Source of the DNA: Candidatus Omnitrophota bacterium
GTDB lineage: Bacteria; Omnitrophota; Gorgyraeia; Zapsychrales; Fredricksoniimonadaceae
Length of the DNA stretch: 64,000 nt
Direction of reading: 5' to 3'
Assembly: GCA_044225175.1 (NCBI GenBank)
Contig: JBGAJA010000002.1
Span: forward strand, 146,917-210,916
Made by a program: the position numbers and the translations under genes
Shown: piece by piece, positions 21,883-42,062 of the stretch
Layout of the letters: each line of letters opens with the position of its first letter
How positions within the stretch are numbered: position 1 is the first letter of the stretch
The notes under the pieces: generated by a model
What the model saw: the letters and a program-made list of their open reading frames with translations, nothing else
What the model was told of the DNA's origin: nothing
Database searches by the model: none

Positions 21883-21888
21883 GTTAAC

Positions 21889-23701: not shown

Positions 23702-23789
23702 CAGGAATTTAATGTTTTTGTAAGGTATTGCAGGTCATTTAGTTGGAATATAAAGTGTTTGGCAAATAGTAAAATTTTTTGAGTCGGGG

Positions 23790-23818
23790 TTGCATACTGA
23801 CATTTTAGAGGGTATACT
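23790..23818 (+). promoter_or_regulatory. Candidate sigma70 promoter (TTGCAT - 17 nt - TATACT) for the PPIase gene
   Basis: Sequence match 30 nt upstream of a GGGAGG RBS and the ATG at 23850. Confidence 0.35.
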
Positions 23819-23849
23819 TAAATACATATTTTCTTTTAGGGAGGCTTTT

Positions 23850-24785
23850 ATGAAAGAAGTTTCTAACAAAATTTACATTTTAATGACTATTTGTTTATTA
23901 TCCGGGCTATTTTCCGGATGCGATTTATTCTTTCCCGCAAAAAAATCAGCACCTAAAGCTTCCAGTGAAGCTAAGACCATTGAAGAACCTGTTTCAACCC
24001 CCGCTGCTCCAAGCACAGATAACCAAGGACCACTACCAGCCGATGTTGTAGCTCGCGTAGGCAATTGGAGCATGACAATCGATGAATTTAACCAAAGACT
24101 TAAGTTGCTCAAACAAGGCATGCCAGATTTTAATGACAAGGATCCCCAAGTTAAAGCTTCCGTATTAAATGAACTTATTCGTCAGCAGCTTCTTGTCAAA
24201 GACGCTGAGGCTTCAGATATTAGCGAACAAAAAGATATTAAAGATGCACTTGAGGATTTTCGACGCACCTTGCTTGTTCAAGAATTAGCTCAACGATTGA
24301 CCAAAGGCATTTCAGCAACAGAAATGGATGCCCAAAAGTATTATGATCAAAACAAGAATCTTTTTATTAAGTGGAAGGTTCGTGAAATTGTTGTCCCAGA
24401 TGAAGCAACAGCCAAAAATATTTTGGTCCAAGTATTGCAAGGCGGAGATTTTGCCGCTCTGGCAACTGCCCAATCTAAAGGAAAATCTGCTGCAAAAGGT
24501 GGATTGATTGAAGATCCCGCCCAATCCCCCGTCGAAGTTCAAAAGAATATCACAGCTCTTGAGGCCGGTGGAACAAGCGCAGTATTTAAAGGGCAGGGAG
24601 GCTATTACATTGTGCATGTGGATGAGAAAACATTTGTTCCTTTTTCAGAAGTCAAAGACGAGTTAAAGAACAGACTTTCGGCACGTAAACAACAAGAGAC
24701 AATTTTGGAGCACATTAATCAATTGTCTCAAAAAACAAAAGTTGAAGTTAATAAAGAACTCCTTGGGATTAGCGGTACGAAATAA
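23850..24785 (+). CDS. Parvulin-type peptidyl-prolyl isomerase (SurA/PrsA-like), lipoprotein signal
   Basis: Lipobox 'LLSGLFSG|C' and a PpiC domain ('KVREIVV...', 'GGDFxxLA', 'GGxLxxxx'). The start is set at the internal Met after the RBS. Confidence 0.55.
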   Translation: MKEVSNKIYILMTICLLSGLFSGCDLFFPAKKSAPKASSEAKTIEEPVSTPAAPSTDNQGPLPADVVARVGNWSMTIDEFNQRLKLLKQGMPDFNDKDPQVKASVLNELIRQQLLVKDAEASDISEQKDIKDALEDFRRTLLVQELAQRLTKGISATEMDAQKYYDQNKNLFIKWKVREIVVPDEATAKNILVQVLQGGDFAALATAQSKGKSAAKGGLIEDPAQSPVEVQKNITALEAGGTSAVFKGQGGYYIVHVDEKTFVPFSEVKDELKNRLSARKQQETILEHINQLSQKTKVEVNKELLGISGTK

Positions 24786-24810
24786 TCTCATCTGGAGTCG
24801 GAGGTAAGGC

Positions 24811-25635
24811 ATGGCTATCGAAAATCAAAAACAAATCATTCTAATTGGAATTGCCGTTGTCGCTGGTATTGGGGCTGCGGTTTTAATTGGCAATTGGAAG
24901 ACCCAAGAAATCAATCAAAAAACACAAGAGTTGCACGATCAATACGAACAACAACAAAAACAAATGGCTGCTGAAATTCAAAAAAGCAGTGAACAGCAAG
25001 TAGCAGCAGTCAGAGAAGAGCTTAACCAAGTCCGTCAACAGCAGCAGGAAGCAATTGAACAGGCCATGAAATCTGCAAAAGAAGCAGAAGCACAAAAGGG
25101 AGCAAGGCTTTCAAACACTCTTTTAACTGCTAAGACTCCTGGTGGTAAAAGAGCTGTAACAGTCATGGTGGATTCATTGAATGCTGTTGGGGGGTTGCTC
25201 AATGCAGGGGATTATGTTGATGTGATTGCTCATCTTGATGTTCCCGATAATGCATCAGACAAGAAAAAGACTTTAACAGCCATGGTTTTTCAAGACCTTC
25301 AGGTGTTGGCCATCAACACTAATTTGGATCAACCTGGAAATTATGATCAACAACAAGGCGCTCCATTTTTAAAAGTAACATTCGCGGTTGATCCACAAGA
25401 AGCAGGCCTTCTAGCTTTTGCCAATAAAAATGGTAAGTTAGAACTAGCGCTTCGTCCTTCCAACGACAACGATAAACAAACAGTCAAAAGCTCCACATGG
25501 AGTACTTTAGCTGAGTATGTTTTACAAAATCAAGGGTCTTCTCTTGATCTTCCAGGGATGGAAGCAGCTTCCGAAAAGACAGAAACTACTAATAAACCGT
25601 ACATACAAATTTTTAGAGGCGGTAAGGAGCTTTAA
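24811..25635 (+). CDS. cpaB: Flp pilus assembly protein CpaB/RcpC-like
   Basis: N-terminal TM helix, coiled/Q-rich linker, and a C-terminal SAF-like domain. It sits directly upstream of the secretin. Confidence 0.5.
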   Translation: MAIENQKQIILIGIAVVAGIGAAVLIGNWKTQEINQKTQELHDQYEQQQKQMAAEIQKSSEQQVAAVREELNQVRQQQQEAIEQAMKSAKEAEAQKGARLSNTLLTAKTPGGKRAVTVMVDSLNAVGGLLNAGDYVDVIAHLDVPDNASDKKKTLTAMVFQDLQVLAINTNLDQPGNYDQQQGAPFLKVTFAVDPQEAGLLAFANKNGKLELALRPSNDNDKQTVKSSTWSTLAEYVLQNQGSSLDLPGMEAASEKTETTNKPYIQIFRGGKEL

Positions 25636-25638
25636 TTC

Positions 25639-27606
25639 ATGAAAAAACATCTAAATAAAAGTGCAAGTATTTTGGTCGCAACAGCTTTTATTCTTTGCCA
25701 AAATCTTCCTTTGTTAGCTCTAGCTCAAGAAGACATGTCTACCAATGCAGTTTCTGAAGATGAGCAAACACCTCAAGTAGAAAAAACAGAGCATATTAAT
25801 TTAGTTATAGGAGATGTTCAGTCCATTGAAACAAGCAATCTCACCAGAGTGGCTGTGACCAGTCCAGAGATTGTAGATATTTCTGATGCAAAATCCGACA
25901 AAGTTTTTGTAGTAGGCAAAAAGGCAGGACAAACAGAAGTTTTTATTTGGGATGATAATGGTAAACGAAGCATAAGTGTAGGCGTTGCCAGTGAAAATCT
26001 AGATGTTTTAACTTCACGTATAGAAGAAGTCATATCTAAGGCCCAGATCAAAGGAATTGTTGTTGAAAAGAATTTGTATGAAGGTAAGGTCATTCTCTCT
26101 GGTGCAGCCACCAAAGAGGATAAAGACATTCTTGATAGGATCATGGATCCCTACAGCGAGAAAATCATTAATCTCGTTAAAAGAGCTGTGAACGATGATT
26201 TAATCCAAATTGATTGCCAAGTGACTGAGTTAAGTCAAACACTAGTCAAACAATTGGGGATTAATTGGAGCAATGCTACAGGGTCTTCCAGTTCAACGTC
26301 TTCCTCAAATAATACCAATACCGTAAATTTACAACCTACGTATCAAGAAACACTTCCCACATCTAATGGTAAACCAGAAGACTGGTTTAAGATTGGAAAC
26401 TTTAATCGTACAACGGCATTGCAGGCCACCGTAGATGCTTTGATTACGGAAGGAAAGGGACGAATTTTATCTAAACCACGTCTAGTTGTTCTAAGTGGAA
26501 AAGAAGCAAGTTTCTTAGTTGGTGGGCAAGTCCCCATCCGCACAACGACATTTAATTCAACCAATAGTTCTTCTGGTGGGGCAGGAACAAGTCAGGAAAA
26601 TGTGACCTACAAGCAATACGGGGTCAACATGACAATCACACCAACCATCCGTGAAGGCAAGGTGGACATTGTTCTTAATGTACAAATCAATGATATTGAT
26701 AAATCGACTTCTGACTCTCAAGGGGACGTTGGTTTTATCTCTCGTGAAGCATCCACCCATTTATTTCTTGATGACAAGCAGACGATTATTTTAGCTGGAT
26801 TTATTAAACATTCCGATGGTCGTACTGTTAACCGAGTGCCTTTTTTAAGCAAAATTCCTGTTGTGGGAATGTTCTTTAGAAATGTGACCAACGGTAATCC
26901 AGATTCAGATACAGAAATGGTTATTTCTCTGACACCAACCATTTTAAAATCAAAGAAGATCGCCACAGAACAGACAGTGTTGCCTAGTAAACGAACAAAG
27001 AGTTTTGTTAAAGAAGTAGACACCAATTATGAAAAAGAAACAATTGATGGCCAACAATTGATTGAACCAAAGGCTGAAGAACCAAAGGCGCAAGAAAAAC
27101 CAGCTGCGGTTATAACTGCTACACCTCCAGTAGAACCTAAACAAAACTTTGGACCGCACAATGTCTCAGTAGAACCTAAAGCTACGGATACAAAGAAAGC
27201 CGAAGTAAGCGCTCCAGTTGCAGATGTTAAACCTATCGAAGAAAAACCTGTACAAATTATCAATCAACCACAGGATCCTTTGACAAGCTATGTCCGTTCC
27301 GTTCAAATGAGAATTTCACAGAAAATCACATATCCTTTTGAAGCTCTCCAAAATAATCAAGAAGGAACTGTGAAGCTTAGACTACGCATTCTTAAAGATG
27401 GATCTTTAGCAGATTGTGATCTTTTAGAGTCTTCCGGGAAAGATATTTTTGACAGGGATGCTTTGAATACCGCAAAAATAGTAGCTCCTTTTCAGGCTTT
27501 TCCAGAGAACTTGCATCAAGAAGATTTGATTTTGACAATTCCTATCGTCTATAATCAGCGAACAGAAGTTACGAATAATACACAAGCAGTCATGGCTTCT
27601 TATTAG
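25639..27606 (+). CDS. cpaC: Tad/Flp secretin (CpaC/RcpA family) with a C-terminal Pro-rich linker and TonB-C-like domain
   Basis: Signal peptide and a pilus-secretin N-domain. Secretin core 'LSKPRLVVLSGKEASFLVGGQVPI', 'VPFLSKIPVVGMFFRN', 'MVISLTPTIL'. The extra C-terminal 'EPKAEEPKAQEKP...' linker is followed by 'YPFEALQNNQEGTVKLRLRILKDGSL...SSG...AL', a TonB_C signature. Confidence 0.8.
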   Translation: MKKHLNKSASILVATAFILCQNLPLLALAQEDMSTNAVSEDEQTPQVEKTEHINLVIGDVQSIETSNLTRVAVTSPEIVDISDAKSDKVFVVGKKAGQTEVFIWDDNGKRSISVGVASENLDVLTSRIEEVISKAQIKGIVVEKNLYEGKVILSGAATKEDKDILDRIMDPYSEKIINLVKRAVNDDLIQIDCQVTELSQTLVKQLGINWSNATGSSSSTSSSNNTNTVNLQPTYQETLPTSNGKPEDWFKIGNFNRTTALQATVDALITEGKGRILSKPRLVVLSGKEASFLVGGQVPIRTTTFNSTNSSSGGAGTSQENVTYKQYGVNMTITPTIREGKVDIVLNVQINDIDKSTSDSQGDVGFISREASTHLFLDDKQTIILAGFIKHSDGRTVNRVPFLSKIPVVGMFFRNVTNGNPDSDTEMVISLTPTILKSKKIATEQTVLPSKRTKSFVKEVDTNYEKETIDGQQLIEPKAEEPKAQEKPAAVITATPPVEPKQNFGPHNVSVEPKATDTKKAEVSAPVADVKPIEEKPVQIINQPQDPLTSYVRSVQMRISQKITYPFEALQNNQEGTVKLRLRILKDGSLADCDLLESSGKDIFDRDALNTAKIVAPFQAFPENLHQEDLILTIPIVYNQRTEVTNNTQAVMASY

Positions 27607-27658
27607 AGAAGAATTGTAAAAGCATAGATATATGCAAAACTAGACTGATGACAAAACT

Positions 27659-27703
27659 AAAAACCGTGATACAATATTTTCTATTGTCCACGGTTTTTAG
27701 TTT
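27659..27703 (+). terminator. Rho-independent terminator after the secretin gene
   Basis: 10-bp stem aaaaaccgtg/cacggttttt with a 20-nt loop, followed by tttttagttttt. Confidence 0.5.
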
Positions 27704-27770
27704 TTGCAGTATCCTCCATTCTTCAGAGTCTCCGAGAAGAAAAGGCAATATCTAACATGAAAGATTAATT

Positions 27771-29953: not shown

Positions 29954-30304
29954 ATGTCCATTGTCAATCTGACCAAAGAAACAACATTAGCCAGTTATGT
30001 TGAAATTGCTGACAACCCTTTAAAAAGAATGACGGGACTATTAGGAAGAGTTTCGTTAGAGCAGGGGTATGCGCTTGTGATTACCAACTGCAGTAGCATA
30101 CACATGCTTTTTATGAAGTTTTCGATTGATGTTATTTTTGTCGACCAGAACAAAAGAGTGGTTGGTCTTGTTAAGAACATACAACCATTCAAATTCTCTC
30201 CTGTTTTCTGGAAATCTTCTTGCGCCATTGAATTGCCCGCTGGTACAATTGAGTCAACAAAGACGCAAATTGCAGACCAACTATCTGTTTGTACATCATG
30301 GTAA
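29954..30304 (+). CDS. DUF192-family small protein
   Basis: 'MTGLLGR...IHMLFMKFSIDVIFVD...AIELPAGT' matches the DUF192/COG1430 pattern as I recall it. Confidence 0.45.
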   Translation: MSIVNLTKETTLASYVEIADNPLKRMTGLLGRVSLEQGYALVITNCSSIHMLFMKFSIDVIFVDQNKRVVGLVKNIQPFKFSPVFWKSSCAIELPAGTIESTKTQIADQLSVCTSW

Positions 30305-32099: not shown

Positions 32100-32117
32100 A
32101 ACTAAGAGAGGGTGTCT

Positions 32118-32390
32118 ATGGTAAGAACAATCAAATACCACACAATCAAAGACAATAAGGGGCAAAGTACAATTGAATACATTGTTCTTGTGACCGCTGT
32201 TATTGCCATCATCATTTTGTTTATGACTGGTCAAAACAGCATGTTTGGAAATAAAATAACAAATACGTACTGCACAACGGCAGAAGGAATGTCTGAAAGA
32301 GCATCAGCATTGTCAGAGACACATAACTCAGAAGCTGGAAATCAAGCGAATTCCATTGTGACAGTGAATGTATTACAAAACCTTTTTTAA
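32118..32390 (+). CDS. Flp/TadE-family prepilin
   Basis: ...KG|QSTIEYIVLVTAVIAIIILF. Confidence 0.6.
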   Translation: MVRTIKYHTIKDNKGQSTIEYIVLVTAVIAIIILFMTGQNSMFGNKITNTYCTTAEGMSERASALSETHNSEAGNQANSIVTVNVLQNLF

Positions 32391-32424
32391 TTAATGACCA
32401 AGAAATTTCCTAACAGGAGGATTT

Positions 32425-32778
32425 ATGTTAAGACAATTAGCTAATAAAAAAGCCCAAAACACCGCCGAATACGCGCTTTTGATTGCCCTTGTTGTAGCCG
32501 GTGTTATTGCCATGCAAACATATGCCCAACGCGCTTTGCAAGCCCGCGTGAGAGACGCTTCCTTATACATGAGTAATACAACAAAGGAAATAGGAACAAC
32601 TAATCAATACGAGCCTTATTACACGCAAAGTAATTATGCTGTCTCCCGAGAATCAGAAAGCAATAAACAGCTAGCTGAAGGAACAGTAGCTCAAGGACAG
32701 GCAACCAATAGAACCCGTGCAAAGGGTGGTGAACAAAAATCCACATATGACAATGCAGTACTTCAAAGTGGTATTTAG
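32425..32778 (+). CDS. Flp/TadE-family prepilin (paralog of 33462..33866)
   Basis: ...KA|QNTAEYALLIALVVAGVIAM; AGGAGG RBS; shares 'QYEPYYxQS' with paralog 6. Confidence 0.6.
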   Translation: MLRQLANKKAQNTAEYALLIALVVAGVIAMQTYAQRALQARVRDASLYMSNTTKEIGTTNQYEPYYTQSNYAVSRESESNKQLAEGTVAQGQATNRTRAKGGEQKSTYDNAVLQSGI

Positions 32779-32830
32779 GCAAACAATTGTAACTGTACAC
32801 ATAGTTTAAGACATATTTTAAGGAGGATGT

Positions 32831-33169
32831 ATGATTACATATCTTAATGGTAGAAAAGGGCAAAGCACCCTCGAATATGCGGTATTAATCATTATTATTA
32901 TCGCAGCCTTAATTGCCATCCAAACGTATATCAAGCGTGGTGTCCAGGGGCGCCTTAAATCCGCTTCAGACGATATTGGCGATCAATTTTCCCCAGGTAA
33001 TACCAATGTCATATGGGCAGAAAAAACCAGAACCAATGAACAACAGACTTTTGGGATTCAAGGGCAGGGAGTCCAATCAACTACATTGTTGTCCAATGAA
33101 GTAACTAACACAATCATGAAGTCGTCCGTTGCTAAATCAGACCAAGAATATTGGGGCACAGATAAATAA
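32831..33169 (+). CDS. Flp/TadE-family prepilin (paralog of 34201..34539)
   Basis: ...KG|QSTLEYAVLIIIIIAALIAI; AAGGAGG RBS; shares 'KRGVQGRLKxxxDDIGDQ' with paralog 8. Confidence 0.6.
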   Translation: MITYLNGRKGQSTLEYAVLIIIIIAALIAIQTYIKRGVQGRLKSASDDIGDQFSPGNTNVIWAEKTRTNEQQTFGIQGQGVQSTTLLSNEVTNTIMKSSVAKSDQEYWGTDK

Positions 33170-33259
33170 GGAGAAGTTTTTTAAAAGTAATGGAAGCACA
33201 AGAGGGTTCGGAAATCTCATTTCGAACCCTCTACACTTTAACTAATATTAAGGATGATT

Positions 33260-33451
33260 ATGAAAAAAAAGGGCCAAAGTACTGTGGAATACATTTTGCT
33301 CGTGACAGCAGTTGTAGCCGTCATTATTGTCATTGTTAACGGAGACAAGTCGCCTTTTCGCAAAAAGTTAAACACGACGATCGACACCATCACTAATGGA
33401 ATGGAAGATAAGGCGTTCACGCTTACCAATATGATGGGTAATCAACAGTAG
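33260..33451 (+). CDS. Flp-family pilin (about 63 aa)
   Basis: MKKKG|QSTVEYILLVTAVVAVIIVIV. Confidence 0.6.
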   Translation: MKKKGQSTVEYILLVTAVVAVIIVIVNGDKSPFRKKLNTTIDTITNGMEDKAFTLTNMMGNQQ

Positions 33452-33461
33452 GTGATCAGAC

Positions 33462-33866
33462 ATGTTTAAAAGCCGCCAACAAGGAACGGTTTCTATCAGT
33501 GAATATATTTTGGTGTTCATACTTGTGGTTGCTGTGGTCGCTGCTATGGCCGTGTACATCCAAAGATCCCTTCAAGGTCGGCTGCGAGATGGCAGGCATT
33601 ATGCCATGACTAAATTTAGAGAAGAATGTGTGCGTACTAATTGCGTAGGTACAGGAGAAGTAGGAGAACAGTATGAACCATACTATCTCCAATCCAAGGC
33701 AAACATTGCTACAGACAGCCTTAAACACAAAGGACTGATGACATCCAAATTAGGAAGCTCGGGAATATTTGTCGCCAGAACTAGTTCTAATAATCAAAGC
33801 AATGCCCAGGCTACACAGCTTCCTCCAATGAATGCCATCAATGATCAAGTCCTGGGGAAAAAATAA
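33462..33866 (+). CDS. Flp/TadE-family prepilin
   Basis: ...QQG|TVSISEYILVFILVVAVVAAM. Confidence 0.55.
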   Translation: MFKSRQQGTVSISEYILVFILVVAVVAAMAVYIQRSLQGRLRDGRHYAMTKFREECVRTNCVGTGEVGEQYEPYYLQSKANIATDSLKHKGLMTSKLGSSGIFVARTSSNNQSNAQATQLPPMNAINDQVLGKK

Positions 33867-34183
33867 TGAAGAACCAGGGACAAACCATACTGGAATATGT
33901 CATGCTCTTGGGGTTAGTCACAATTGTTTTGGTCTATATGAGTGTCGACATGAAACGAGCCGTGCAAAGTATGGTGAAAGTAACGGCCGACCAACTGGGC
34001 AATCAAGTCAATGCCGACCAAGACTTTAATGGTCAAATCAAACAAGGCATTATGACCAAATCTATGACCAATACATGGCAAGGACAGCAGCAGCTTCGCA
34101 GCGAAAGAGAAGGAATCATTAATCAGCAAGTAGGGGATTTCACAGATACGAAAACTAATACGACAACGAAAATAGATAATTAG
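33866..34183 (+). CDS. Flp/TadE-family prepilin
   Basis: MKNQG|QTILEYVMLLGLVTIVLVYM; TAATG overlap with the previous gene. Confidence 0.6.
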   Translation: MKNQGQTILEYVMLLGLVTIVLVYMSVDMKRAVQSMVKVTADQLGNQVNADQDFNGQIKQGIMTKSMTNTWQGQQQLRSEREGIINQQVGDFTDTKTNTTTKIDN

Positions 34184-34200
34184 CATCCAGAAAGACATTC

Positions 34201-34539
34201 ATGCTTATGAAAAGATTATCCATTCAAAGAGGCCAAAGTTTAATCGAATACTCTATCCTGATTATTATTGTTATCGCTGTGTTTTTATCCATGAATAGCT
34301 ATTTTAAAAGAGGTATTCAAGGCCGCTGGAAAGCATCGATTGATGATTTAGGCGAACAATATGACCCGCGCACAACTAATTCTCTCATCAACTATGTCCT
34401 TAATAGCAGTTCGAATACTTCAATAGATGTGGTTCCAACGAGCAATGGAGATTTTTGGACCAACCGTGTGGACACTTCTTCTTCTTCCGAATCTAAGGGT
34501 GGACAAACGGTTGTAGGAGCCTTGCTCAACAAACTTTGA
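34201..34539 (+). CDS. Flp/TadE-family prepilin
   Basis: ...RG|QSLIEYSILIIIVIAVFLSM. Confidence 0.6.
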   Translation: MLMKRLSIQRGQSLIEYSILIIIVIAVFLSMNSYFKRGIQGRWKASIDDLGEQYDPRTTNSLINYVLNSSSNTSIDVVPTSNGDFWTNRVDTSSSSESKGGQTVVGALLNKL

Positions 34540-34545
34540 GAAGAT

Positions 34546-36171
34546 ATGTTTAATAGAAAATTCGTCAGATTCTTTAATGGCCCTTTCAAATCTCCACGCT
34601 CACAAAGCGGACAGGCTGTTATTGAAATTGCCCTTTTTGGCGCCATCCTGATCTTTTTAATAGGCGTTATTCTTCGCACTCATCTAAGTCATTCTTTTAG
34701 CACCAACCATCAAGTCAGGGCCATGAAGCTGGCTTTGCAGCAAAGTTATTTAGGCAGCGTCGGAAAGATTCCCAATAGTTCCAGAAACTCTGCCAGTATT
34801 CTCTTTATAGAAGACAGGCTCTCACCGGACTTAAATAAATTTGCAGCGATTGAAAGAAATCCATTTGTCGCCAATGGTTCAGGAACAATGACTGATCGAC
34901 TAAACTACCCAATCGATTTTGGGGAGGTAGGGCATAATCTTCCTATCATGGATATTTTTGTCAACGGCCAGCACTTCCCTTTGACGGTAGGGGCCTATGT
35001 CTTTAGAGTCATTTATCCGCAAAATGACACAGATGCAAAAGGAGATGCTTGTCCTCCTGATTTTATGGGGCCTGATCATGGTCCAGAATTTATCAGATGC
35101 CTTCGTCAGGAGCATGAATGGAAAGAAGGATCACCCACATTCTATCAACAGATTGTTAACGGAACACAAGACTATAACCCCCTCGCTTCCAAAGACAGTT
35201 GGGACCTATTACGCAATAATTGGGACAAAAATCGTCTCACTAAGCCTATTACGGGCAATGTTTTCTCGGATGATGTGGATGAAGGCATTATTCGTAATTA
35301 TATTGCCTGGCAGTGGAAGCCTATCAAAGGCGTAGGCTCAAGTCTTGACTTTGGTTCAGACGATAATCCTAACTATCCTTCAATGGACTTTTTAGGGAAT
35401 CTTAGAGAACAAACCGCTTATTATGTCAGTCAAAAACCTGTAGATAAATTATTGGCCATTTTAAGTTCACCTTCTCTGGCGTTTTATGAAATTAACCCTG
35501 GCGGCGGCGGTAGTTATGCAGCAGGAAACAGCGGGTACGTCTTATCGTTGACCGATGAATTGACTAATGCTCCAACAGGATTTAATTTTACAAACCCCAA
35601 AAGTTGTGACACAGGAAACGGTATGGGAGTTTTGTGCTTGACCCGCGCCCCATCGGCAGGAAATATTACAGGAGTTGTTGTTTTGGATAATCAGGCAGGA
35701 GATATTGATCTGGCCTATGATGATAAAACATCTCCTGGTCCTAAACCAGGTCTTATGCAGCAAATGGCCATTTACAGCTGGGTCGTTCCTCCGGATGGTA
35801 AAAAACAAGGAACATTCATGCAAATTAAAGAAGGAAAATTGTATAATCCTGAGACCCATCAAGTCGTGCGAAGCATTAGCAGCAAAGACCACGTGGATTT
35901 GATCTCACGCATGTTTCAACTGAGCAATAATACCCAGCGCTTTTGCAAGACAAGCATTATGTATGGATCAACTCCTGTTCCTTATTTGGCCGATCAAAGT
36001 CCTGATGCTAATCATCCTGTTCCAAATCCGGTTGAGGCATGTGGAGAGTGTAATAGTAAAAACATTAACAAAACTTGTTTTGATCCGGCCTCTCGGATTT
36101 TATTTATCAGGACATTGATAGGGGATGCAACCACACGCAAGTGGTTTACAGATGTAACCAAGGGATTATAA
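34546..36171 (+). CDS. TadG-like large pseudopilin (541 aa)
   Basis: Flp/TadE-like N-terminus '...SG|QAVIEIALFGAILIFLIG' followed by a roughly 480-aa domain. Its size matches TadG. Confidence 0.45.
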   Translation: MFNRKFVRFFNGPFKSPRSQSGQAVIEIALFGAILIFLIGVILRTHLSHSFSTNHQVRAMKLALQQSYLGSVGKIPNSSRNSASILFIEDRLSPDLNKFAAIERNPFVANGSGTMTDRLNYPIDFGEVGHNLPIMDIFVNGQHFPLTVGAYVFRVIYPQNDTDAKGDACPPDFMGPDHGPEFIRCLRQEHEWKEGSPTFYQQIVNGTQDYNPLASKDSWDLLRNNWDKNRLTKPITGNVFSDDVDEGIIRNYIAWQWKPIKGVGSSLDFGSDDNPNYPSMDFLGNLREQTAYYVSQKPVDKLLAILSSPSLAFYEINPGGGGSYAAGNSGYVLSLTDELTNAPTGFNFTNPKSCDTGNGMGVLCLTRAPSAGNITGVVVLDNQAGDIDLAYDDKTSPGPKPGLMQQMAIYSWVVPPDGKKQGTFMQIKEGKLYNPETHQVVRSISSKDHVDLISRMFQLSNNTQRFCKTSIMYGSTPVPYLADQSPDANHPVPNPVEACGECNSKNINKTCFDPASRILFIRTLIGDATTRKWFTDVTKGL

Positions 36172-36173
36172 AA

Positions 36174-36425
36174 ATGAAAAACAAAACAGCCCAATCCACG
36201 ATTGAATTTACTTTTGCCATGGTTGCGGTTGCTTTGTTGATTTTTTCTTTGGTCAAAACTTTTCGATGGGTGGGTATGGATTACGCCCAAAGCGCCTATC
36301 TTCAAGAACAGTCTAATATTTTTGTTCATAACGATAAGTGTGAACAAAGAGGCGACTGCTTTAGTTTAAACGCTGAAAACAATACGCGTGGACAGCGATT
36401 AGGTGCTTTTACAAGGAAGTATTAA
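36174..36425 (+). CDS. TadE-like pseudopilin
   Basis: MKNKTA|QSTIEFTFAMVAVALLIF (TadE 'QSTIEF' motif). Confidence 0.55.
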   Translation: MKNKTAQSTIEFTFAMVAVALLIFSLVKTFRWVGMDYAQSAYLQEQSNIFVHNDKCEQRGDCFSLNAENNTRGQRLGAFTRKY

Positions 36426-36426
36426 T

Positions 36427-39400
36427 ATGGATCAAAACACTAAGAAGAAAAAATATCGCGGACTATTATCATCATTTCAAAGAGGCCCCCAAGGGCAGAC
36501 ATCTTTGATTATGATTTTGATATTGGCTGCGGCTTTTATTTTTTATGCGATTTCCTTAAATTGGAGCAAAATTTCCAGTGTTAAAACAACGTTGTGGATG
36601 GCGAGTGTCACGGCCTCTGCTCAATCGGCGTCGATGTTTGCCAGCTATGGCGAAAGGGTCATTCAAGAGCAGCTTATTCCTTTAGGAGGCATTGAATACA
36701 ATAACGGGAATCTTAGGCATGAAGAAAATGGCCTAGGGGTCCTTATCTTTAAGATATTTATTATTATCGTTGTAGCTATTTTAACCTGGTATATGGGTGG
36801 GTATCCTGCGGCTATTCTTGTGGCAGCCATGATGACAACAAGTTTGGTCATTGAATACATGGTCATTCGGCCCATGACATTTTCGATGTGGAACAAGCTG
36901 CAGCAAAACCTTCAGCCTGTCGACCAATTCCGTGAGTCTGCAATCACGACGGGGATGCAGCAAATCGTCACCGACAGCGTAACTGTGCCGGACCGCTTTG
37001 ATTTAAATGTGAATGGTCTTTGGGGTGCATCGACAAATCCTTCGGACCCCATCAGTCGTTTTGCTTTGTTTTATACCGAACGATTAAAAGCCGTCAAACC
37101 ACCAGATACGGCAGGGATTGAAGCCTTTCAAACAGGCCTTAATAATTTAATCACTCAACCAACACCAGCTAATATCATGGGTCCAACACTAGAAGAGCCG
37201 GGACTTGGGTTTACCCCCTATTGCACAGGAAAAAATTCTTCCGACCCACAATGCAATCCTCAGTGCACAGGAATTTTCAATAGACCTGCACTAGGTAATA
37301 AATCTTCTGGGTTTGGATGGCGGTATACCAAAGATACTGACCAGATCACTTATTATGTTCCAGGACAATGTATTCAAGCTAATGGCACAAAGTATCGTCT
37401 GCAATATAATAGCGCAAAAGAAGGAGGCCCTAAAAAAGCTGATCCTAATGATCCAACTAATTCTTTTCGATACCGTTTAGGCTTCGACGACGAAATAGGA
37501 AAAAGTTTAAATAGCGACAAAACCAATGGCTCAATAGATGGCTCTCCCGTTTACCATCCGGCTACATCTTTAAAAAATGGACTTGTTTTTCCCATGCTTA
37601 ATCAAATGTATAAGATAGATCCTTCTATCTATGAGCCCGTGGCTCTTGGAGCTTTGAGTGCTGATCTTTCTAAAGAGGCTCAAGCGCAGTATTCAAAATT
37701 ATATACGGACAGCGTCACGCCCATGGCTAACTATTTGGCAGGTGATGTTGATTGCGCACAAATGAGAAACTCATCCGAAGGCTTTTATTGGAAAAAAGGG
37801 GCAGACCGCTATTGCTCAGGATTTGTGCAAAGCTATCCTTTAGAAGTAGCAAGTCTAGCCAATAAAAATGTCAGCTACGCTCCATCCACAGCAAGCCAAG
37901 AGCCTAATTATCATTGGCCATATTATCAGTGTCAATACATGCTTAACTCCCAAGGAGAAATTCAGCAATGCGCAGACAGTCCTAATAAGAAACTTTGGCC
38001 TCAAGACCGCATGGACAATTTGGTGTATCAAATCAACGAATTTATTCAATTTAACAATACCATTAAAGGGATGGACAAAAAAAGTTTGGTTGCTTCTTTT
38101 GATCAATGGTATCAAACTGTAATGCCTTTTATTGCTCCTCGATGTTCAGAAGGAAATAGTAATACGCCACTAGATCAATTTGTTTCGGTCAATTTTAAAC
38201 ACATGACGGTCTTTACAAGTGATGCGGCTATTTGCAATCCAGATGCTCAAGGATACATGTATCAATGGATTTATGATTTGCAGAATTGGCAGAAGCTGAT
38301 TAAAGACCCTGCGGACCCTAAAAAAGGGTGGATCAATCAAAGTTTTGGGGACCCAGCAAAAGATTTATGCAGTGGAAAACTTTCGAATTCGGACCCTATG
38401 AACCCAGGGATTGCAGAGTGTTTGGAGAATAAATCCATCTATACGAAACAATTGGATAAGTGCGATAATAATTTTCCTAAACCTACAGAACAGGATGAAC
38501 ATGGGCAATGGATTTATAGCAATGTGTATTTAAATCCAGAGTGCATTGAAGTCATGTACCATCGTCAAACCCAACCATCCAGATTTTTGACCACGTTATC
38601 AGGAACATTTACAAATATTCCTTCATTCCCGCCGCCTTCAGATTTTAAGTTTCCTGTGAATAATAAAGAAACCTATTTCGCTATTAAAGGCTGGGTTAAA
38701 GACAACCGTATCTTAATGGATGCAGTGTATAACAAGAAAATCGTTGTTCAGAATTTGTATAAGTATGCTCAGCAATCCGCTAGTCTTTTTGAAGAAGGGG
38801 CCCAAGAGTTTAGTCGATTCTTAGGTCTGGGAGCTCCGGCCTATGCACTGATGGATAGTGTTTCTGATCGCATAAGTTCGATCAAACGATTGCCTAGTTT
38901 TGCTATCTATGGGTGGAAGGACCATAAGGGACCTATTGGCAGTAATACCAATAATGAATTGTGGCATTTGGCACGTATTGAAGTGGCCCAGCCAGGTCGA
39001 TTGCCGTGGATTAAGATTACCAAACACGGGGCTTTAGGTTCTAATGTGCGCTATACCTATACCGATGGGCAGGGGGATGTTTTGGTCAGAGCCACCCGTT
39101 GGGACCAAAGTTTCGATGGAGGAATAGCCAATTTTGCTAATGGTCTTAAGATATGGAAATTTAGATATGGGAATCCTAAATATAAGGATACGGACACAAA
39201 CACCGGCGGAGAATTAGAGAATATGTGTATGGAGAAAGATACCGGTGCGGGAGGAGTAATATTTGGATATGGTCTTACTTCAGACACCAGAGCTGCATTG
39301 CAAGCGAATTTGCCTCATAATCCTTCTGTTCAAAGTAATTCTTCGGAAGGCAAGGCTTATTCAACGGCTTTCATGCTGAATTTAGATCCAAGAGCCAGCA

Positions 39401-39807
39401 CAGATAAGCTCACATCTCAGATCAAAGATCCAGTGCCTGATAAAAACACGTGCCATTTCGCAGATAAATGCGGAACATTAAATGACTATGCCGCATGCTG
39501 TGCGAAAGCGCCCTCGGGATATTATGGCAAAGACTGGCAGCAGTATTGTCAAAAAACAAATTTGGCTCGATGCCAGAAAAACAAGCAAATCAAAGAGATT
39601 ATTGATAATTTAAAAGACACAGAAGGTTGTTTTTATGGGGCTACAGATTTATTAAACACAGGAGTTCAATCTATTTCAGGGGCGCACTTTGGTGTCCCCA
39701 ATGAAAAACCCTATCACTTAGGTATATTCTTTCACAGTTCAGCAGACGCAAAAAAACAGGGAGTTTTTACAAGGGATACGTATAATGATCATTCCCAATA
39801 TGACTAA
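36427..39807 (+). CDS. Giant pilin-like protein (1126 aa): Flp/TadE-like N-terminal helix, a second TM segment, and a large Cys-rich extracellular domain
   Basis: N-terminus '...QG|QTSLIMILILAAAFIFYAI' after an AAGGAAG RBS. Second hydrophobic segment around aa 120-150. About 30 Cys, including a 'CCAKAPSGYYGKDWQQYCQKTNLARCQ' cluster at the C-terminus. Confidence 0.5.
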   Translation: MDQNTKKKKYRGLLSSFQRGPQGQTSLIMILILAAAFIFYAISLNWSKISSVKTTLWMASVTASAQSASMFASYGERVIQEQLIPLGGIEYNNGNLRHEENGLGVLIFKIFIIIVVAILTWYMGGYPAAILVAAMMTTSLVIEYMVIRPMTFSMWNKLQQNLQPVDQFRESAITTGMQQIVTDSVTVPDRFDLNVNGLWGASTNPSDPISRFALFYTERLKAVKPPDTAGIEAFQTGLNNLITQPTPANIMGPTLEEPGLGFTPYCTGKNSSDPQCNPQCTGIFNRPALGNKSSGFGWRYTKDTDQITYYVPGQCIQANGTKYRLQYNSAKEGGPKKADPNDPTNSFRYRLGFDDEIGKSLNSDKTNGSIDGSPVYHPATSLKNGLVFPMLNQMYKIDPSIYEPVALGALSADLSKEAQAQYSKLYTDSVTPMANYLAGDVDCAQMRNSSEGFYWKKGADRYCSGFVQSYPLEVASLANKNVSYAPSTASQEPNYHWPYYQCQYMLNSQGEIQQCADSPNKKLWPQDRMDNLVYQINEFIQFNNTIKGMDKKSLVASFDQWYQTVMPFIAPRCSEGNSNTPLDQFVSVNFKHMTVFTSDAAICNPDAQGYMYQWIYDLQNWQKLIKDPADPKKGWINQSFGDPAKDLCSGKLSNSDPMNPGIAECLENKSIYTKQLDKCDNNFPKPTEQDEHGQWIYSNVYLNPECIEVMYHRQTQPSRFLTTLSGTFTNIPSFPPPSDFKFPVNNKETYFAIKGWVKDNRILMDAVYNKKIVVQNLYKYAQQSASLFEEGAQEFSRFLGLGAPAYALMDSVSDRISSIKRLPSFAIYGWKDHKGPIGSNTNNELWHLARIEVAQPGRLPWIKITKHGALGSNVRYTYTDGQGDVLVRATRWDQSFDGGIANFANGLKIWKFRYGNPKYKDTDTNTGGELENMCMEKDTGAGGVIFGYGLTSDTRAALQANLPHNPSVQSNSSEGKAYSTAFMLNLDPRASTDKLTSQIKDPVPDKNTCHFADKCGTLNDYAACCAKAPSGYYGKDWQQYCQKTNLARCQKNKQIKEIIDNLKDTEGCFYGATDLLNTGVQSISGAHFGVPNEKPYHLGIFFHSSADAKKQGVFTRDTYNDHSQYD

Positions 39808-40295: not shown

Positions 40296-41153
40296 ATGAT
40301 TACACTTATTTTATTTTTGATTTTTATTTCTTTTGCAGCATTGACGTATAGCCTTCTTCCCATCTTGACCAGAGGCGCAACAGACATCAATCAGCGTCAG
40401 GCCCAGCAGGTCTTAAATAATGCAGATCTTTATTTGCAAGATGCAGATTTGCAAAAGGCCCAACGCATTACGCTCGTCATGCCCGCTGTTCTGGCCATTT
40501 GTGGTTTCTTGTTTTTTCCAGAAAATCTTCGCGTTCCAGGGGCTATTATCGGAGTGATCGTTGGAATCATTATCCCGCGTATTTATGTTTCTAGCCTTAT
40601 CAGCAAAAGAAAAGAAAAGTTTAATGATCAGCTGGTTGATGCTCTGATGATTATGTCGAGTTCTTTTCGAGGGGGGCTTTCTTTGGTGCAGGCGATTGAG
40701 GCGGTCGTTGATGAAATGCCAGATCCTGTTAAGCGAGAGTTCGGAATTGTTTTGGGAGAAAATAAAATGGGCGTTTCTTTGGAAGAAAGCTTGACGCGTC
40801 TACAGGTTCGCATGCCATCGGTTGCCCTTCAACAAATGATTACAGCCATCTTGCTTGCTCGTGAAACAGGCGGTAATCTGCCTGTGATTTTCTCAAGGAT
40901 TGTCAGCACCATTCGAGAACGAAAGAAAATTGAACAAAATCTGAAGACATTAACCATTCAAGGAAAGATTCAAGCCGTTGTCATGACCCTCCTTCCTCTG
41001 TTCTTTGTGATGGGTGTTAGTGCGACGAATCCAAAGTTTTTTGATGTCATGTTTCGTCTCCCCGAAGGCAGGCAGATGTTAATGGTTTGTGTTGTTCTAT
41101 GGGTTGTTGGGGCTATATTAATTTGGAGAATCAGCAAATTTAAGGAAGTTTAA
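40296..41153 (+). CDS. tadB: Tad/Flp pilus inner-membrane platform protein TadB (T2SS-F family)
   Basis: 285 aa, polytopic, with a GspF-like cytoplasmic domain. It sits in the Tad locus. Confidence 0.75.
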   Translation: MITLILFLIFISFAALTYSLLPILTRGATDINQRQAQQVLNNADLYLQDADLQKAQRITLVMPAVLAICGFLFFPENLRVPGAIIGVIVGIIIPRIYVSSLISKRKEKFNDQLVDALMIMSSSFRGGLSLVQAIEAVVDEMPDPVKREFGIVLGENKMGVSLEESLTRLQVRMPSVALQQMITAILLARETGGNLPVIFSRIVSTIRERKKIEQNLKTLTIQGKIQAVVMTLLPLFFVMGVSATNPKFFDVMFRLPEGRQMLMVCVVLWVVGAILIWRISKFKEV

Positions 41154-41156
41154 TTT

Positions 41157-42062
41157 ATGTTAACCATGGCCATGTTGTTAGTTTTTCTAGCTATTTTTGC
41201 GGCGATCTTAGCTTTCATTCCTTTTGATAGTCGTCCCACATTAAAGTTGGACATGACATTGACGCCAAGCCCCTTTGGACAAGAAATACAGACCAAAAAG
41301 AAAAGCCCTCTTTCCGGTCTAGTAAGTCTTTTAAGAAAGGCGGCTTTTTTTAATAAGCCTTTTACCAAGTCGGATTTAGGACAAAGAATATTCAGAGATT
41401 TGTCCTTAAGTCAGACACCCATATCGACGGAAGAATTCCTTTTGATAAAACAAATTTTGGTTGTCGTCCTTATTTTGATTTCTATCAAGATCAATCCAGA
41501 CCCCTCCTTCTTAATGTTTTCTGTTTTAATGGCGGTTGCAGGTGGGTATATTCTTCCCGAATTCTGGCTACGTATGCGAGTTAAAAAAATTAAAGAGTCC
41601 ATTTTGCGTGATTTGCCAGATACGGTTGATCTTTTAGGTCTTTGCGTGAACGCTGGTCTTGATTTTATGATGGCCCTTCGTTATGTGGTGGAAAAGTCAC
41701 AACCCTCAGTCATCATCGAAGAGCTTAGGATCATGATGCAGGAAATCAATGTAGGTAAGCCTCGCAGGGATGCTCTGCGGGATTTATCTAGGAAATATGA
41801 AATGCCGGATTTGGCGACCTTCTCTCGTACCTTGATCCAAGCAGATCGCATGGGTACCTCGGTGTCAGAGGCCCTTAATATTCTCTCCGAAGATATGCGC
41901 GAAACCCGCTATCGCAGAGGCGAAGCCATGGCGCTCAAAGCCCCTCTTAAAATGCTTATTCCCCTGTTATTGTGCATTTTCCCAGTTGTGGCCCTTTTAG
42001 TCGCCGGCCCCATCTTCCTAGACTTCATGCACAACAACCCTCTACAGAACTTAGCCAAATAA
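41157..42062 (+). CDS. tadC: Tad/Flp pilus inner-membrane platform protein TadC (T2SS-F family)
   Basis: 301 aa, a paralog of TadB, in the locus position expected for tadC. Confidence 0.75.
   Translation: MLTMAMLLVFLAIFAAILAFIPFDSRPTLKLDMTLTPSPFGQEIQTKKKSPLSGLVSLLRKAAFFNKPFTKSDLGQRIFRDLSLSQTPISTEEFLLIKQILVVVLILISIKINPDPSFLMFSVLMAVAGGYILPEFWLRMRVKKIKESILRDLPDTVDLLGLCVNAGLDFMMALRYVVEKSQPSVIIEELRIMMQEINVGKPRRDALRDLSRKYEMPDLATFSRTLIQADRMGTSVSEALNILSEDMRETRYRRGEAMALKAPLKMLIPLLLCIFPVVALLVAGPIFLDFMHNNPLQNLAK

Follow-up and report, generated by a model that had tools for sequence, protein, structure and literature searches.

The secretins best comparable to the protein described here are RcpA and CpaC of Tad (type IVc) pilus systems. 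The RcpA of Pseudomonas aeruginosa (PDB 8ODN), whose ring is found as 13- and 14-mers, ends in a short unstructured S-domain, the last four residues of which bind the TPR lipoprotein pilotin TadD (PMC10499894). The alignment-ring role of RcpC likewise comes from work on P. aeruginosa, and no peptidoglycan-interacting component has been reported for canonical Tad systems (PMC12307814).

Several other envelope proteins offer partial parallels. In TonB (H. pylori, PDB 6SLY and 5LW8; E. coli, 1XX3 and 2GSK), a proline-rich linker leads to a C-terminal domain (CTD), and the whole is tethered to an inner-membrane helix coupling to ExbB/ExbD. In the OmpA-type layout, an outer-membrane barrel is followed by a proline-rich hinge and a periplasmic peptidoglycan-binding domain. 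Proteins that carry the cell-wall-targeting domain AMIN, frequently as tandem copies, include the PilQ secretin, TonB-dependent receptors and OEP channels (PMC2572700). Finally, GltG and GltJ of the Myxococcus Agl-Glt machinery and domain III of TolA employ the TonB/TolA-III fold as a trans-envelope connector and not for nutrient import, docking in Agl-Glt taking place by parallel beta-strand addition (PMC11761067).

The present analysis deals with a 64-kb stretch of Omnitrophota DNA, called the window below, in which a first-pass annotation had noticed a secretin gene with a TonB-like 3' end. Omnitrophota are ultra-small, are thought to be predatory or parasitic, and have a Tad machine for which a part in host attachment has been proposed. 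In Velamenicoccus archaeovorus the Tad locus spans 12382-29832 of CP019384.1 (PMC10066038). The secretin of the window resembles RcpA and CpaC in its N-terminal PF13629 domain, its secretin core and its Tad gene partners, and both kinds of secretin have an accessory function attached at the C-terminus. However, where RcpA has its S-domain, the Omnitrophota secretin carries a disordered tether of 109 aa and, after it, a folded TonB_C domain; a TadD-like gene was not found in the window, and TadZ and CpaF form one protein. As in TonB, a proline-rich linker leads up to the C-terminal domain, whose fold is the same, and the YP and SSG motifs as well as a third strand reading 'IPI(V/A)Y' recur in H. 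pylori TonB. The topology is nevertheless inverted, since the domain is tethered to an outer-membrane channel and not to an inner-membrane helix, so that the known mechanism of transducing the proton-motive force is not open to the Omnitrophota protein. GltG, GltJ and TolA differ from it in the same respect, being inner-membrane anchored and coupled to TolQR-like motors. The overall logic is that of OmpA, except that the globular domain is TonB_C instead of OmpA_C and that the barrel is a multimeric secretin. The architecture pattern is also that of the PilQ secretins of type IVa pili, namely a periplasmic module, often in tandem, on a secretin, and in Omnitrophota TonB_C follows AMIN further in being carried by TolC-like channels as well. 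The AMIN fold is unrelated, however, and AMIN lies N-terminal to the secretin whereas TonB_C lies C-terminal to it; cell-wall targeting is documented for AMIN and hypothesised for TonB_C. The likeness to AMIN is one of architecture only.

No description of a secretin-TonB_C fusion was found in the literature on Omnitrophota/Velamenicoccus with secretin and TonB. The first-pass annotation gave no such domain as known for CpaC/RcpA, and the literature found on characterised RcpA/CpaC secretins makes no mention of one either.

Results

Gene layout and Tad context

The identical 655-aa protein is encoded in an independent assembly (Logan SRR28480388, locus L001). The N-terminus, a lone helix in the AlphaFold2 (AF2) model (aa 2-31), is predicted to be a signal peptide cleaved after ...LLALA. 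The PF13629 match (E 4.3e-12; pLDDT 86-92) is conserved at 2.46 bits per site over 235 family members. The PF00263 match is stronger (E 7.8e-39), and the solved chains nearest to the core are 8jvb (E 1.7e-27), GspD 6i1x (E 4e-21) and RcpA 8odn (E 1e-19). [quoted passage not shown] The Pfam secretin domain is followed by 218 residues that make up linker, TonB_C domain and tip (Table 1). An extension of about 180 aa starting at 27060 had been reported in the first-pass annotation. The extension itself is borne out, as it counts 181 aa from that start and every peptide string quoted is present in the ORF, but the coordinate is one base out of frame, the codon starting at 27061.

Table 1. Features of the secretin gene and of the surrounding Tad locus, in window coordinates
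Feature	Position	Strand	Basis
Complete gene for the Tad-type secretin and its C-terminal TonB-type tail, 655 aa + stop codon	25639..27606	+	Single uninterrupted ORF; Pfam PF13629 + PF00263 + PF03544
Signal peptide, predicted cleavable, aa 1-29, ends ...LLALA before QED	25639..25725	+	Hydrophobic N-terminus, A-x-A motif
T2SS-T3SS_pil_N, periplasmic N-terminal domain typical of CpaC/RcpA secretins, aa 51-111	25789..25971	+	Pfam PF13629
Secretin core domain, aa 267-437	26437..26949	+	Pfam PF00263
Disordered tether, aa 438-546: semi-conserved segment 438-475, then P/E/K/A-rich spacer 476-545	26950..27276	+	AF2 pLDDT, composition
TonB C-terminal-domain fold, aa 547-640	27277..27558	+	PF03544, TIGR01352, AF2, Foldseek
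C-terminal tip, aa 641-655, ...TNNTQAVMASY-COOH	27559..27603	+	Family endings
SurA/PrsA-like PPIase	23790..24785	+	Pfam Rotamase_2
RcpC/CpaB, periplasmic alignment-ring protein of Tad systems	24811..25635	+	Pfam PF16976, E 5.5e-25
Fused TadZ (ParA-like) + CpaF/TadA (T2SSE ATPase), 719 aa	27771..29930	+	Pfam AAA_31/ParA aa 3-239, T2SSE aa 364-642
DUF192 protein	29954..30304	+	Pfam PF02643
About nine Flp/TadE-like pilin genes	32112..36425	+	Translations; G(Q)STxEY-type class III signal motif in each
TadB and TadC platform proteins	40296..42062	+	Pfam T2SSF, 1.2e-17 and 1.5e-17

The gene sits in a cassette with the order PPIase, RcpC, secretin-TonB_C, TadZ::CpaF, DUF192, and the Tad partners RcpC/CpaB, TadZ, CpaF/TadA, TadB, TadC and the Flp pilins all lie within 24.8-42.1 kb of the window. 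The PPIase contains a putative lipobox, 'LFSGC'. One gene of the pilin array encodes 541 aa, and Flp_Fap and Class_IIIsignal matches are found at the equivalent position in the related locus L002. A giant ORF of at least 6820 aa adjoins the Tad locus, while the related loci L002 and L086 are flanked by long ORFs. The search for window genes covered ORFs of at least about 110 aa outside the Tad locus and of at least 55 aa inside it. No prepilin peptidase was recognised at the window Tad locus and no pal or ompA-like gene among the window ORFs scanned; a TPR/TadD-like pilotin gene was found neither among these ORFs nor in loci L002 and L004.

The tail domain has a TonB-type fold

Two profile libraries recognise the tail domain well above their thresholds. 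Pfam TonB_C (PF03544) matches aa 562-639 with an E-value of 2e-16 and 60.6 bits, against a gathering score of 24.6, and NCBIfam TIGR01352 (tonB_Cterm) gives 49.9 bits against a cutoff of 27.1. The TonB_2 match is barely at its cutoff (22.3 versus 22). In the AF2 model the domain (pLDDT 84-96) consists of helices 547-562 and 567-571, strands 576-585 and 590-597, helix 602-615 and strand 629-638. When aa 540-655 were modelled alone from a 93-sequence alignment, the same helix-helix-strand-strand-helix-strand order was obtained with confidence (mean pLDDT 83.6, pTM 0.70). A Foldseek comparison with the PDB returned TonB-CTD, HasB, FusB or TolA-III structures as all of its top 24 matches, headed by the H. 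pylori TonB-CTD 6SLY (E 1.4e-6, 32% identity, TM-score 0.68/0.73). The tail domain is a true TonB-CTD/TolA-III fold, fused C-terminally to a Tad-type secretin; on this point profile scan, structure prediction and structural matches agree with what the first-pass annotation had read from the sequence. A six-frame search found no second TonB_C elsewhere in the 64-kb window.

Over 235 family members, TonB_C is conserved at 2.45 bits per site with 100% occupancy, as compared to 2.62 bits for the secretin core, and its most conserved elements are strands 1 and 3 (about 3.0 bits). The domain is conserved about as strongly as the secretin core and is kept under strong selection.

The fusion characterises a large Omnitrophota family

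The fusion is not a one-off oddity of this gene but the rule in a large Omnitrophota family. Two homologue searches were carried out, one starting from the most divergent locus, with the best 80-150 matches listed, and the secretin-TonB_C fusion was present in all of the ~230 protein clusters among the matches listed. Eighty species-level loci, taken among the matches listed from a scan of 185,579 species genomes, were compared. A single TonB_C copy was found in 68 of them and two copies in nine (about 11% tandem); of the three exceptions, one lies at a contig end, one has a frameshift and one is an aberrant read-through ORF. The first-pass annotation had allowed that the extension might be absent or frameshifted in close relatives, yet it is present and in frame in every complete relative examined, close as well as distant. 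Apart from placeholder labels ('uncultured Planctomycetales', 'bacterium') and three odd bins, the named sources among the matches listed are Omnitrophota. The three bins, 'Elusimicrobia' (L073), 'Phycisphaerae' (L049) and a 'Hydrothermarchaeota' fragment, are probably mislabelled; L073 and L049 have the same cassette as the Omnitrophota loci.

Synteny holds in 70-78 of the 80 species-level loci. The PPIase gene lies upstream of the secretin in 73 (and also in L002 and L004), RcpC/CpaB lies upstream in 77, and TadZ::CpaF lies downstream in 78, as a single ORF in at least 70; the DUF192 gene was found in 55, with 3 kb of flank covered. An outer-membrane beta-barrel gene (336-404 aa, with a long disordered N-terminus) directly follows the secretin on its 3' side in seven species-level loci (6 of the 80, plus L004); neither the window nor the majority of loci contains it.

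The same TonB_C subtype also occurs outside the secretins, in three and six copies on TolC-like OEP channels, two clusters of which are named Omnitrophota, and in repeat proteins with 4-7 copies. Because TolC-like channels there bear 3-6 TonB_C copies too, these data suggest that TonB_C is a general periplasmic anchor for outer-membrane channels in Omnitrophota.

The linker and the question of energy transduction

The spacer that precedes the domain is P/E/K-rich, as annotated, aa 476-545 containing 17% P, 13% E, 13% K and 13% A, and AF2 predicts it to be disordered (pLDDT below 50 across aa 439-544). In the 235-member family alignment this spacer shows 0.25 bits per site and 19% occupancy. 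Linker length ranges from 21 to 168 aa across the family, some members having 21-28 aa. The description of the tether as periplasm-spanning consequently fails for the family, in which the linker is hypervariable. At ~0.34 nm per residue, the contour length of the shortest linkers is calculated as about 7-10 nm, which limits their reach to targets near the outer membrane. The conserved job of the domain must therefore be feasible there.

These lengths bear on the idea of an energised 'reverse TonB', according to which an inner-membrane motor of the ExbBD, TolQR or AglRQS type, or a canonical TonB or TolA, would pull the secretin via the tethered domain, the effect being channel gating or a coupling between pilus dynamics and the proton-motive force. 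Linker and CTD do look like those of TonB, to the point that full-length TonB gives weak NCBIfam matches over aa 476-608, and the 109-aa linker of the window protein could span the periplasm. Linkers of 21-28 aa, however, cannot reach the inner membrane. Neither is there a TonB-type inner-membrane anchor helix or an ExbB/ExbD-interacting N-terminus: the signal peptide is followed by the secretin domains, and the remainder is modelled by AF2 as soluble domains, barrel domains and disordered linker, none of it forming a hydrophobic helix. The window ORFs scanned and the neighbourhoods of L002 and L004 yielded no exbB, exbD, tolQ or tolR gene, and no TonB-dependent receptor is encoded in the 64-kb window or in these two neighbourhoods. 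A 2026 preprint likewise reports no canonical TonB-dependent-receptor/sus architecture in the Omnitrophota giant-protein neighbourhoods that it examined. Taken together, this makes such a motor-driven device very improbable.

Because the inner-membrane anchor is absent and ExbBD genes are not found nearby, the secretin-TonB_C protein is not a TonB protein. Databases automatically label the family 'TonB family protein' or 'TonB C-terminal domain-containing protein', and the first of these names is misleading for these secretins. Energy transduction is also the least likely of the three roles offered in the first-pass annotation; from among them I infer that anchoring to peptidoglycan or to another envelope structure is the best reading.

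A possible anchor near the outer membrane

By analogy with the solved RcpA structure, the secretin would form a ring of about 13-14 subunits whose C-termini would exit on the outside of the barrel, just below the outer membrane. If both features hold, a crown of 13-14 tethered TonB_C domains, or 26-28 in tandem forms, would result in the periplasm near the outer membrane. Through these domains the channel would be fixed to some abundant or polymeric structure by the outer membrane, the peptidoglycan layer being the favoured candidate ligand, and docking would provide a load-bearing, positioning or assembly anchor comparable to that which AMIN domains give PilQ secretins. Neither an AMIN-like anchor nor a TadD pilotin was found in the window locus. 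The favoured, still tentative hypothesis is that the TonB_C tail is a passive docking module, and not an energy transducer, that anchors the secretin near the outer membrane, with peptidoglycan as its favoured ligand.

The view that TonB CTDs bind peptidoglycan is that of a minority and has limited data behind it. Such binding is mentioned as a proposal in a review (PMC9022066, citing Kaserer 2008), and a literature search for direct evidence of such binding gave only this citation. The multiplicity of TonB_C copies in tandem secretins, OEP channels and 4-7-copy proteins fits avidity for a polymer. Strand capture, on the other hand, is the well-established activity of the fold, and the conserved strand 3, which is the Ton-box-pairing one, fits a protein ligand at least as well as the cell wall.

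The domain may thus capture a Ton-box-like beta-strand of a defined envelope protein, in which case it would recruit or align the secretin instead of tying it to the cell wall. Candidate partners are an outer-membrane or periplasmic assembly factor, a pilotin substitute, the RcpC ring, or the downstream beta-barrel protein of some relatives. Capturing strands is what the fold canonically does (TonB/Ton box, TolA/TolB, GltG/GltF), the top structural matches are all strand-capturing, with a bound partner in several of the solved structures, and conservation is highest in strands 1 and 3. The Agl-Glt model has partner strands docked by TonB-CTD-like domains within a trans-envelope machine (PMC11761067), and canonical RcpA requires a partner, TadD, at its C-terminus (PMC10499894). 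The beta-barrel gene that directly follows the secretin in seven loci would supply such a partner, but it is missing from the window and from most loci, and no locus partner was found to have a conserved Ton-box-like motif. The string 'AEKVFVNTN' of the L004 beta-barrel protein, considered as a Ton box for its likeness to the tip, is unconserved in seven aligned homologues and was dismissed as a coincidence. Arrays of up to 6-7 copies and the presence of the domain on an unrelated TolC-like channel also sit poorly with a one-to-one partner. Docking to a specific protein is the nearest rival of the peptidoglycan anchor, albeit a rather doubtful one.

The C-terminal tip

Another potential ligand lies in the protein itself. 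Among 152 classified family proteins, the ending is A[ST]Y in 65, short in 66 and of another kind in 21; V[VIM]A[SA]Y is kept in 65 of the 152, and the conserved tip lies some 14-17 aa beyond the TonB_C domain. The anchor model leaves this conserved V[VI]A[SA]Y tip unexplained. The tip (...TQxVxASY or ...EKVIASY) recalls Ton-box consensus sequences such as (D/E)T(I/L/V)VVTA, and might pair with strand 3 of its own or of a neighbouring TonB_C domain, thereby locking the oligomer or auto-inhibiting the domain. TonB CTDs are indeed able to dimerise (PMC9022066). Alternatively, the tip might be a pilotin-binding peptide as in RcpA, a variant against which it counts that no TPR pilotin gene was found in the window. 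In both AF2 monomer models, however, the tip is disordered (pLDDT below 50) and undocked on the domain, and it is missing in more than half of the classified members, all tandem forms included. For these two reasons the docking in cis of ...TQAVMASY as a Ton-box mimic was rejected as the core mechanism. Since it is missing from more than half of the family, the tip cannot be the core function of a universally kept domain, and a role as self-ligand or pilotin-binding peptide seems unlikely.

The neighbouring giant gene raises a further question, namely whether the crown catches a Ton-box-like strand of a substrate, either minor pilins or the giant protein, and so raises the substrate's concentration where the channel opens to the periplasm. 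The giant ORF next to the Tad locus and the long ORFs around L002 and L086 would supply such a cargo. According to the 2026 preprint, secretion/pilus genes and 'TonB-domain' genes, the kind of protein being unstated, flank Omnitrophota giant genes in regions that also hold Tad cassettes. Ton boxes, moreover, let bacteriocins engage TonB (PMC9022066). This evidence is circumstantial, no candidate cargo was identified with a Ton-box motif, and the occurrence of the same domain on TolC-like channels points to a general envelope role. Of the explanations considered, capture of cargo is accordingly given the least credence, and I regard it as highly improbable.

Discussion

Across the phylum, the pilotin-binding C-terminus of the Tad secretin has been replaced by a tethered TonB-fold domain under strong selection. 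Hundreds of these secretins stand under the name 'TonB family protein' and are thereby hidden from secretin surveys, and the annotation of Ton systems could be misled in turn.

In its most far-reaching form, which I consider improbable, TonB_C would be a repurposed, phylum-wide connector of outer-membrane channels to the remaining envelope, present in 1-7 copies on Tad secretins and TolC-like channels, and would, at least on the secretin, act not passively but as a force handle for an inner-membrane Ton/Tol-type motor or for the retracting pilus; a TonB working in reverse would then gate or energise a secretin used against host cells. More simply, the parallel fusion to TolC-like channels suggests a general and undescribed principle of envelope architecture in Omnitrophota. 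Should the secretin tail prove to be the anchor tentatively favoured here, it would represent a new way of holding a force-bearing pilus pore in the envelope, and would add an outer-membrane-anchored, inverted topology to those in which the TonB/TolA fold is known to be used.

The Tad secretin ends in a genuine TonB_C domain

The secretin gene is a single unbroken ORF in the translation of the window, and the 655-residue protein it encodes is found unchanged in an independent public assembly. The first-pass annotation had described a Tad secretin fused to a proline-rich spacer and a TonB-type domain. Every peptide it quoted is present in the translation, and of its coordinates only the start, 27060, is off frame, by one base. 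The three Pfam domains (see the table) all far exceed their curated thresholds, and the NCBIfam tonB_Cterm model concurs on the tail (50 bits vs 27), which bears out the proposed domain identity. Pro makes up 17% of the spacer, and Glu, Lys and Ala 13% each.

In the full-length AlphaFold2 model, the N domains, the secretin core and the C-terminal domain (aa 547-640, pLDDT 84-92) are all confident, and residues 439-544 and 642-655 fall below a pLDDT of 50. Modelled alone with 93 homologues (pLDDT 83.6, pTM 0.70), the tail adopts a TonB-type fold, as had been anticipated, with the order helix-helix-strand-strand-helix-strand. When this model was compared with the PDB using Foldseek, the first 24 places were occupied exclusively by TonB/HasB/FusB C-terminal domains and TolA domain III, the top match being the H. 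pylori TonB-CTD (32% identity, TM-score 0.68/0.73). H. pylori TonB is also matched by plain sequence search (E 1.5e-5) and has the third strand, IPI(V/A)Y, in common with the tail. From the ORF, the domain matches, the model and the spacer composition it follows that the factual content of the annotation was right throughout; the protein holds a genuine TonB_C family member.

Features of the window and of the secretin-TonB_C protein (aa, residues of that protein)
Feature	Position	Strand	Remarks
Four-small-gene cluster	8634-10588	-	separate, adjoins parAB; one gene with an N-terminal methylation (type IV pilin/pseudopilin) motif
yidC, dnaA, dnaN, gyrB, gyrA	10941-21078		first in the gene order
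GST, nitrilase-family hydrolase, malate/lactate dehydrogenase			after gyrA, before PPIase
SurA-like PPIase	23790-24785	+	followed by RcpC/CpaB, then secretin
Secretin-TonB_C gene	25639..27606	+	655 aa
T2SS-T3SS_pil_N	aa 51-111		Pfam 4e-12
Secretin	aa 267-437		Pfam 8e-39
Spacer	aa 476-545
TonB_C	aa 562-639		Pfam 2e-16, 60.6 bits vs threshold 24.6
C-terminal tip	27559-27603		aa 641-655, ...TQAVMASY
TadZ::CpaF fusion	27771-29930	+	719 aa, directly after secretin
DUF192, then uncharacterised 467-aa protein			between TadZ::CpaF and pilin genes
Flp/TadE-like pilin genes	from 32112	+	about 9, one of 541 aa; G(Q)STxEY motifs
1134-aa ORF	36403..39807	+	after pilin genes; hydrophobic, possibly pilin-like N-terminus
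152-aa ORF	39785-40243		just 5' of TadB; candidate prepilin peptidase
TadB, TadC			after pilin-like genes, before transposase
IS200-like Y1 transposase	42252-42935	+	between TadC and giant ORF
Giant ORF	43540-64000	+	at least 6820 aa; straight after Tad locus, extends beyond window end

A complete Tad-type locus next to the likely replication origin

The secretin-TonB_C gene lies within a complete Tad-type locus. Given the yidC-gyrA genes upstream and a minimum of the cumulative GC skew near 12-14 kb of the window, this locus likely adjoins the replication origin. In two distant relatives (loci L002 and L004), gyrB and gyrA are also upstream of the Tad locus, with the gene run from them to the secretin retained, and the Tad locus published for V. 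archaeovorus lies at genome positions 12.4-29.8 kb. Textbook Tad systems encode TadZ, a ParA/MinD-like ATPase, and the secretion ATPase CpaF/TadA in separate genes; in at least 70 of the 80 species-level Omnitrophota loci compared below, the two form one ORF. Ahead of its SurA-like domain, the PPIase displays a possible lipoprotein signal (LFSGC, then D) and a linker rich in Pro, Ala and Ser, and it may act as a chaperone anchored in the membrane and devoted to the Tad machine. The pilin gene set of 32112-39807 is unusually large, and neither its pilin-like genes nor the 1134-aa ORF gave any Pfam match. No prepilin peptidase was recognised. The sole Pfam match of the giant ORF is Peptidase_C39 (aa 225-345); very long ORFs also adjoin the related loci L002 and L086, in agreement with a 2026 preprint that places giant Omnitrophota genes beside pilus/secretion genes.

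The fusion is conserved throughout the phylum

All of the 120 best homologues, with identities down to 37%, combine PF13629, PF00263 and PF03544. A second search, started from the genome locus that diverges most (31% identity), yielded about 115 further clusters, all with Secretin and TonB_C, and with PF13629 in all but one. The source names are Omnitrophota/Omnitrophica, 'bacterium' or function labels such as 'TonB family protein' and 'pilus assembly protein CpaC'; one homologue is named 'TonB C-terminal domain-containing protein' in UniProt. When 185,579 species were scanned, each through a single genome, 320 relatives were found, of which the best 80 were examined. Here the fusion, whose presence in orthologues the first-pass annotation had left to be checked, is found in 77: TonB_C is single in 68 and in tandem in 9. 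Of the other three, one is at a contig end, one is split by a frameshift and one is an aberrant 1127-aa read-through ORF (L074, 1802-5185), in which a secretin cut near residue 386-420 runs, with no TonB_C, into TadZ-CpaF, probably through deletion or misassembly. In these 80 loci, RcpC (77) and the PPIase (73) are upstream of the secretin and TadZ-CpaF (78) is downstream. Two loci labelled Elusimicrobia and Phycisphaerae have the same cassette as the Omnitrophota loci, and these labels are doubtful. Since the cassette is conserved in the 80 loci and the gyrB/gyrA-to-secretin run is kept in two distant relatives, the fusion appears to be old and to have been passed on vertically within the phylum.

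At E <=1e-10, the tail matches 223 representative proteins (50% clustering). Two secretins with two TonB_C domains, P0355 (1045 aa) and P0275 (1091 aa), bear an additional unannotated C-terminal extension, of about 300 aa and up to about 490 aa, respectively; one cluster member in this group has an archaeal label (Hydrothermarchaeota), probably a binning error.

A conserved domain on a tolerant linker

Over 235 family members, the TonB_C domain (2.45 bits per site, 100% occupancy) is conserved like the N domain (2.46 bits, 100%) and the secretin core (2.62 bits, 95%), in contrast to the spacer (0.25 bits, 19%). Its best-conserved elements are strands 1 and 3 (about 3.0 bits). The linker, 109 aa in the protein under study, ranges from 21 to 168 aa across the family (median 52 in the homologue clusters). 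At about 0.34 nm per residue, the shortest linkers span just 7-10 nm or so. The conserved function of the tail must therefore be feasible near the outer membrane, and a family-wide requirement to reach the inner membrane is ruled out.

Judging from its sequence, the protein cannot work as a TonB: a signal peptide and then secretin domains make up its N-terminal part, so that TonB_C is tethered to the outer membrane instead of to an ExbBD-coupled inner-membrane helix. Among the window ORFs scanned (at least about 110 aa outside the Tad locus, at least 55 aa inside), none encodes a TPR pilotin (TadD), RcpB, ExbB/ExbD, TolQ/TolR, Pal or an OmpA-like protein, and a six-frame search of the window found no second TonB_C domain. 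Energised pulling of the tails by a Ton/Tol-type motor is given very little weight, and capture of cargo by the tails even less.

A passive anchor as the preferred reading

In Omnitrophota, the same TonB_C subtype also occurs on an unrelated type of outer-membrane channel. In four clusters of TolC-like OEP proteins, of which two bear the name Omnitrophota, it is present at the N-terminus in 3 or 6 copies (P0273, P0379 with its partial cluster mate P0245, P0386, P0387; also locus L086, 6001-8391), and repeat-only proteins are made of 4-7 copies (P0300, P0310, P0323 and P0354, the last from a KSB1 bacterium). The same set of architectures (secretin, OEP and tandem arrays) has been described for AMIN, a module that targets the cell wall and belongs to PilQ secretins (PMC2572700). 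The reading tentatively preferred here, at somewhat less than even chances, is that the TonB_C tails would anchor the secretin passively and multivalently to something abundant or polymeric close to the outer membrane. The obvious candidate ligand would be peptidoglycan, which the TonB CTD of E. coli has been proposed to bind (PMC9022066). Arguing for an anchor are the occurrence on OEP channels and the AMIN-like set of architectures, the tandem copies on the secretin, the 13-14-fold multiplicity of tails expected from RcpA, the tolerant linker, and the fact that no peptidoglycan-interacting part has been reported in canonical Tad machines (PMC12307814). The main rival, somewhat less probable than the anchor, is that TonB_C would dock onto a specific protein through strand addition, the well-established activity of this fold, with which the high conservation of strand 3 is consistent.

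The C-terminal tip and a neighbouring beta-barrel gene

Of 152 family proteins classified, 65 end in V[VI]A[SA]Y-COOH, 14-17 residues past the domain (...TQTVVASY, ...EKVIASY), a motif resembling a Ton box. In another subgroup, a second ending, ...SFLKNVAxHK, recurs. The V[VI]A[SA]Y tip also recalls the four C-terminal residues through which P. aeruginosa RcpA binds the pilotin TadD (PMC10499894), and it could serve as a ring lock or pilotin site. This is improbable, and the tip was rejected as the core of the mechanism: it is not docked onto TonB_C in the AlphaFold2 models and is missing from tandem and short-tailed members. It is nevertheless a real feature of one subfamily. Ring lock, energised pulling and cargo capture are all less likely than anchoring or strand-addition docking.

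In seven species-level loci (L006, L013, L014, L017, L020 and L021 of the 80-locus set, and L004, 11736-12950), an outer-membrane beta-barrel gene of 336-404 aa lies immediately 3' of the secretin, occasionally overlapping it; it is missing from the window. Its product combines a signal peptide with a disordered N-terminus, in which (K/R)xxAVNxQLN is conserved, and carries a terminal beta-signal, GS(K/R)FG(V/I/L)QF. An apparent Ton-box-like match in this protein was discarded, not being conserved.

Relation to known systems

Functionally, the nearest analogues are the AMIN-bearing PilQ and OmpA, whose barrel is joined through a hinge to a periplasmic domain; in fold, they are TonB, TolA-III and the connectors GltG and GltJ. 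Unlike RcpA, the protein lacks the short pilotin-binding S-domain. A literature search found no paper describing a secretin-TonB_C fusion. RcpA is treated in the main paper on Omnitrophota genomics, which does not mention TonB; the 2026 preprint reports 'TonB-domain' genes, of a protein kind left unstated, adjoining giant ORFs in regions where Tad cassettes are present as well. Automatic annotations already show the architecture, so that the sequence family as such was known before. What appears to be new is that the Tad secretin of a whole phylum bears an inverted TonB-type tail, and that TolC-like channels likewise carry TonB_C.
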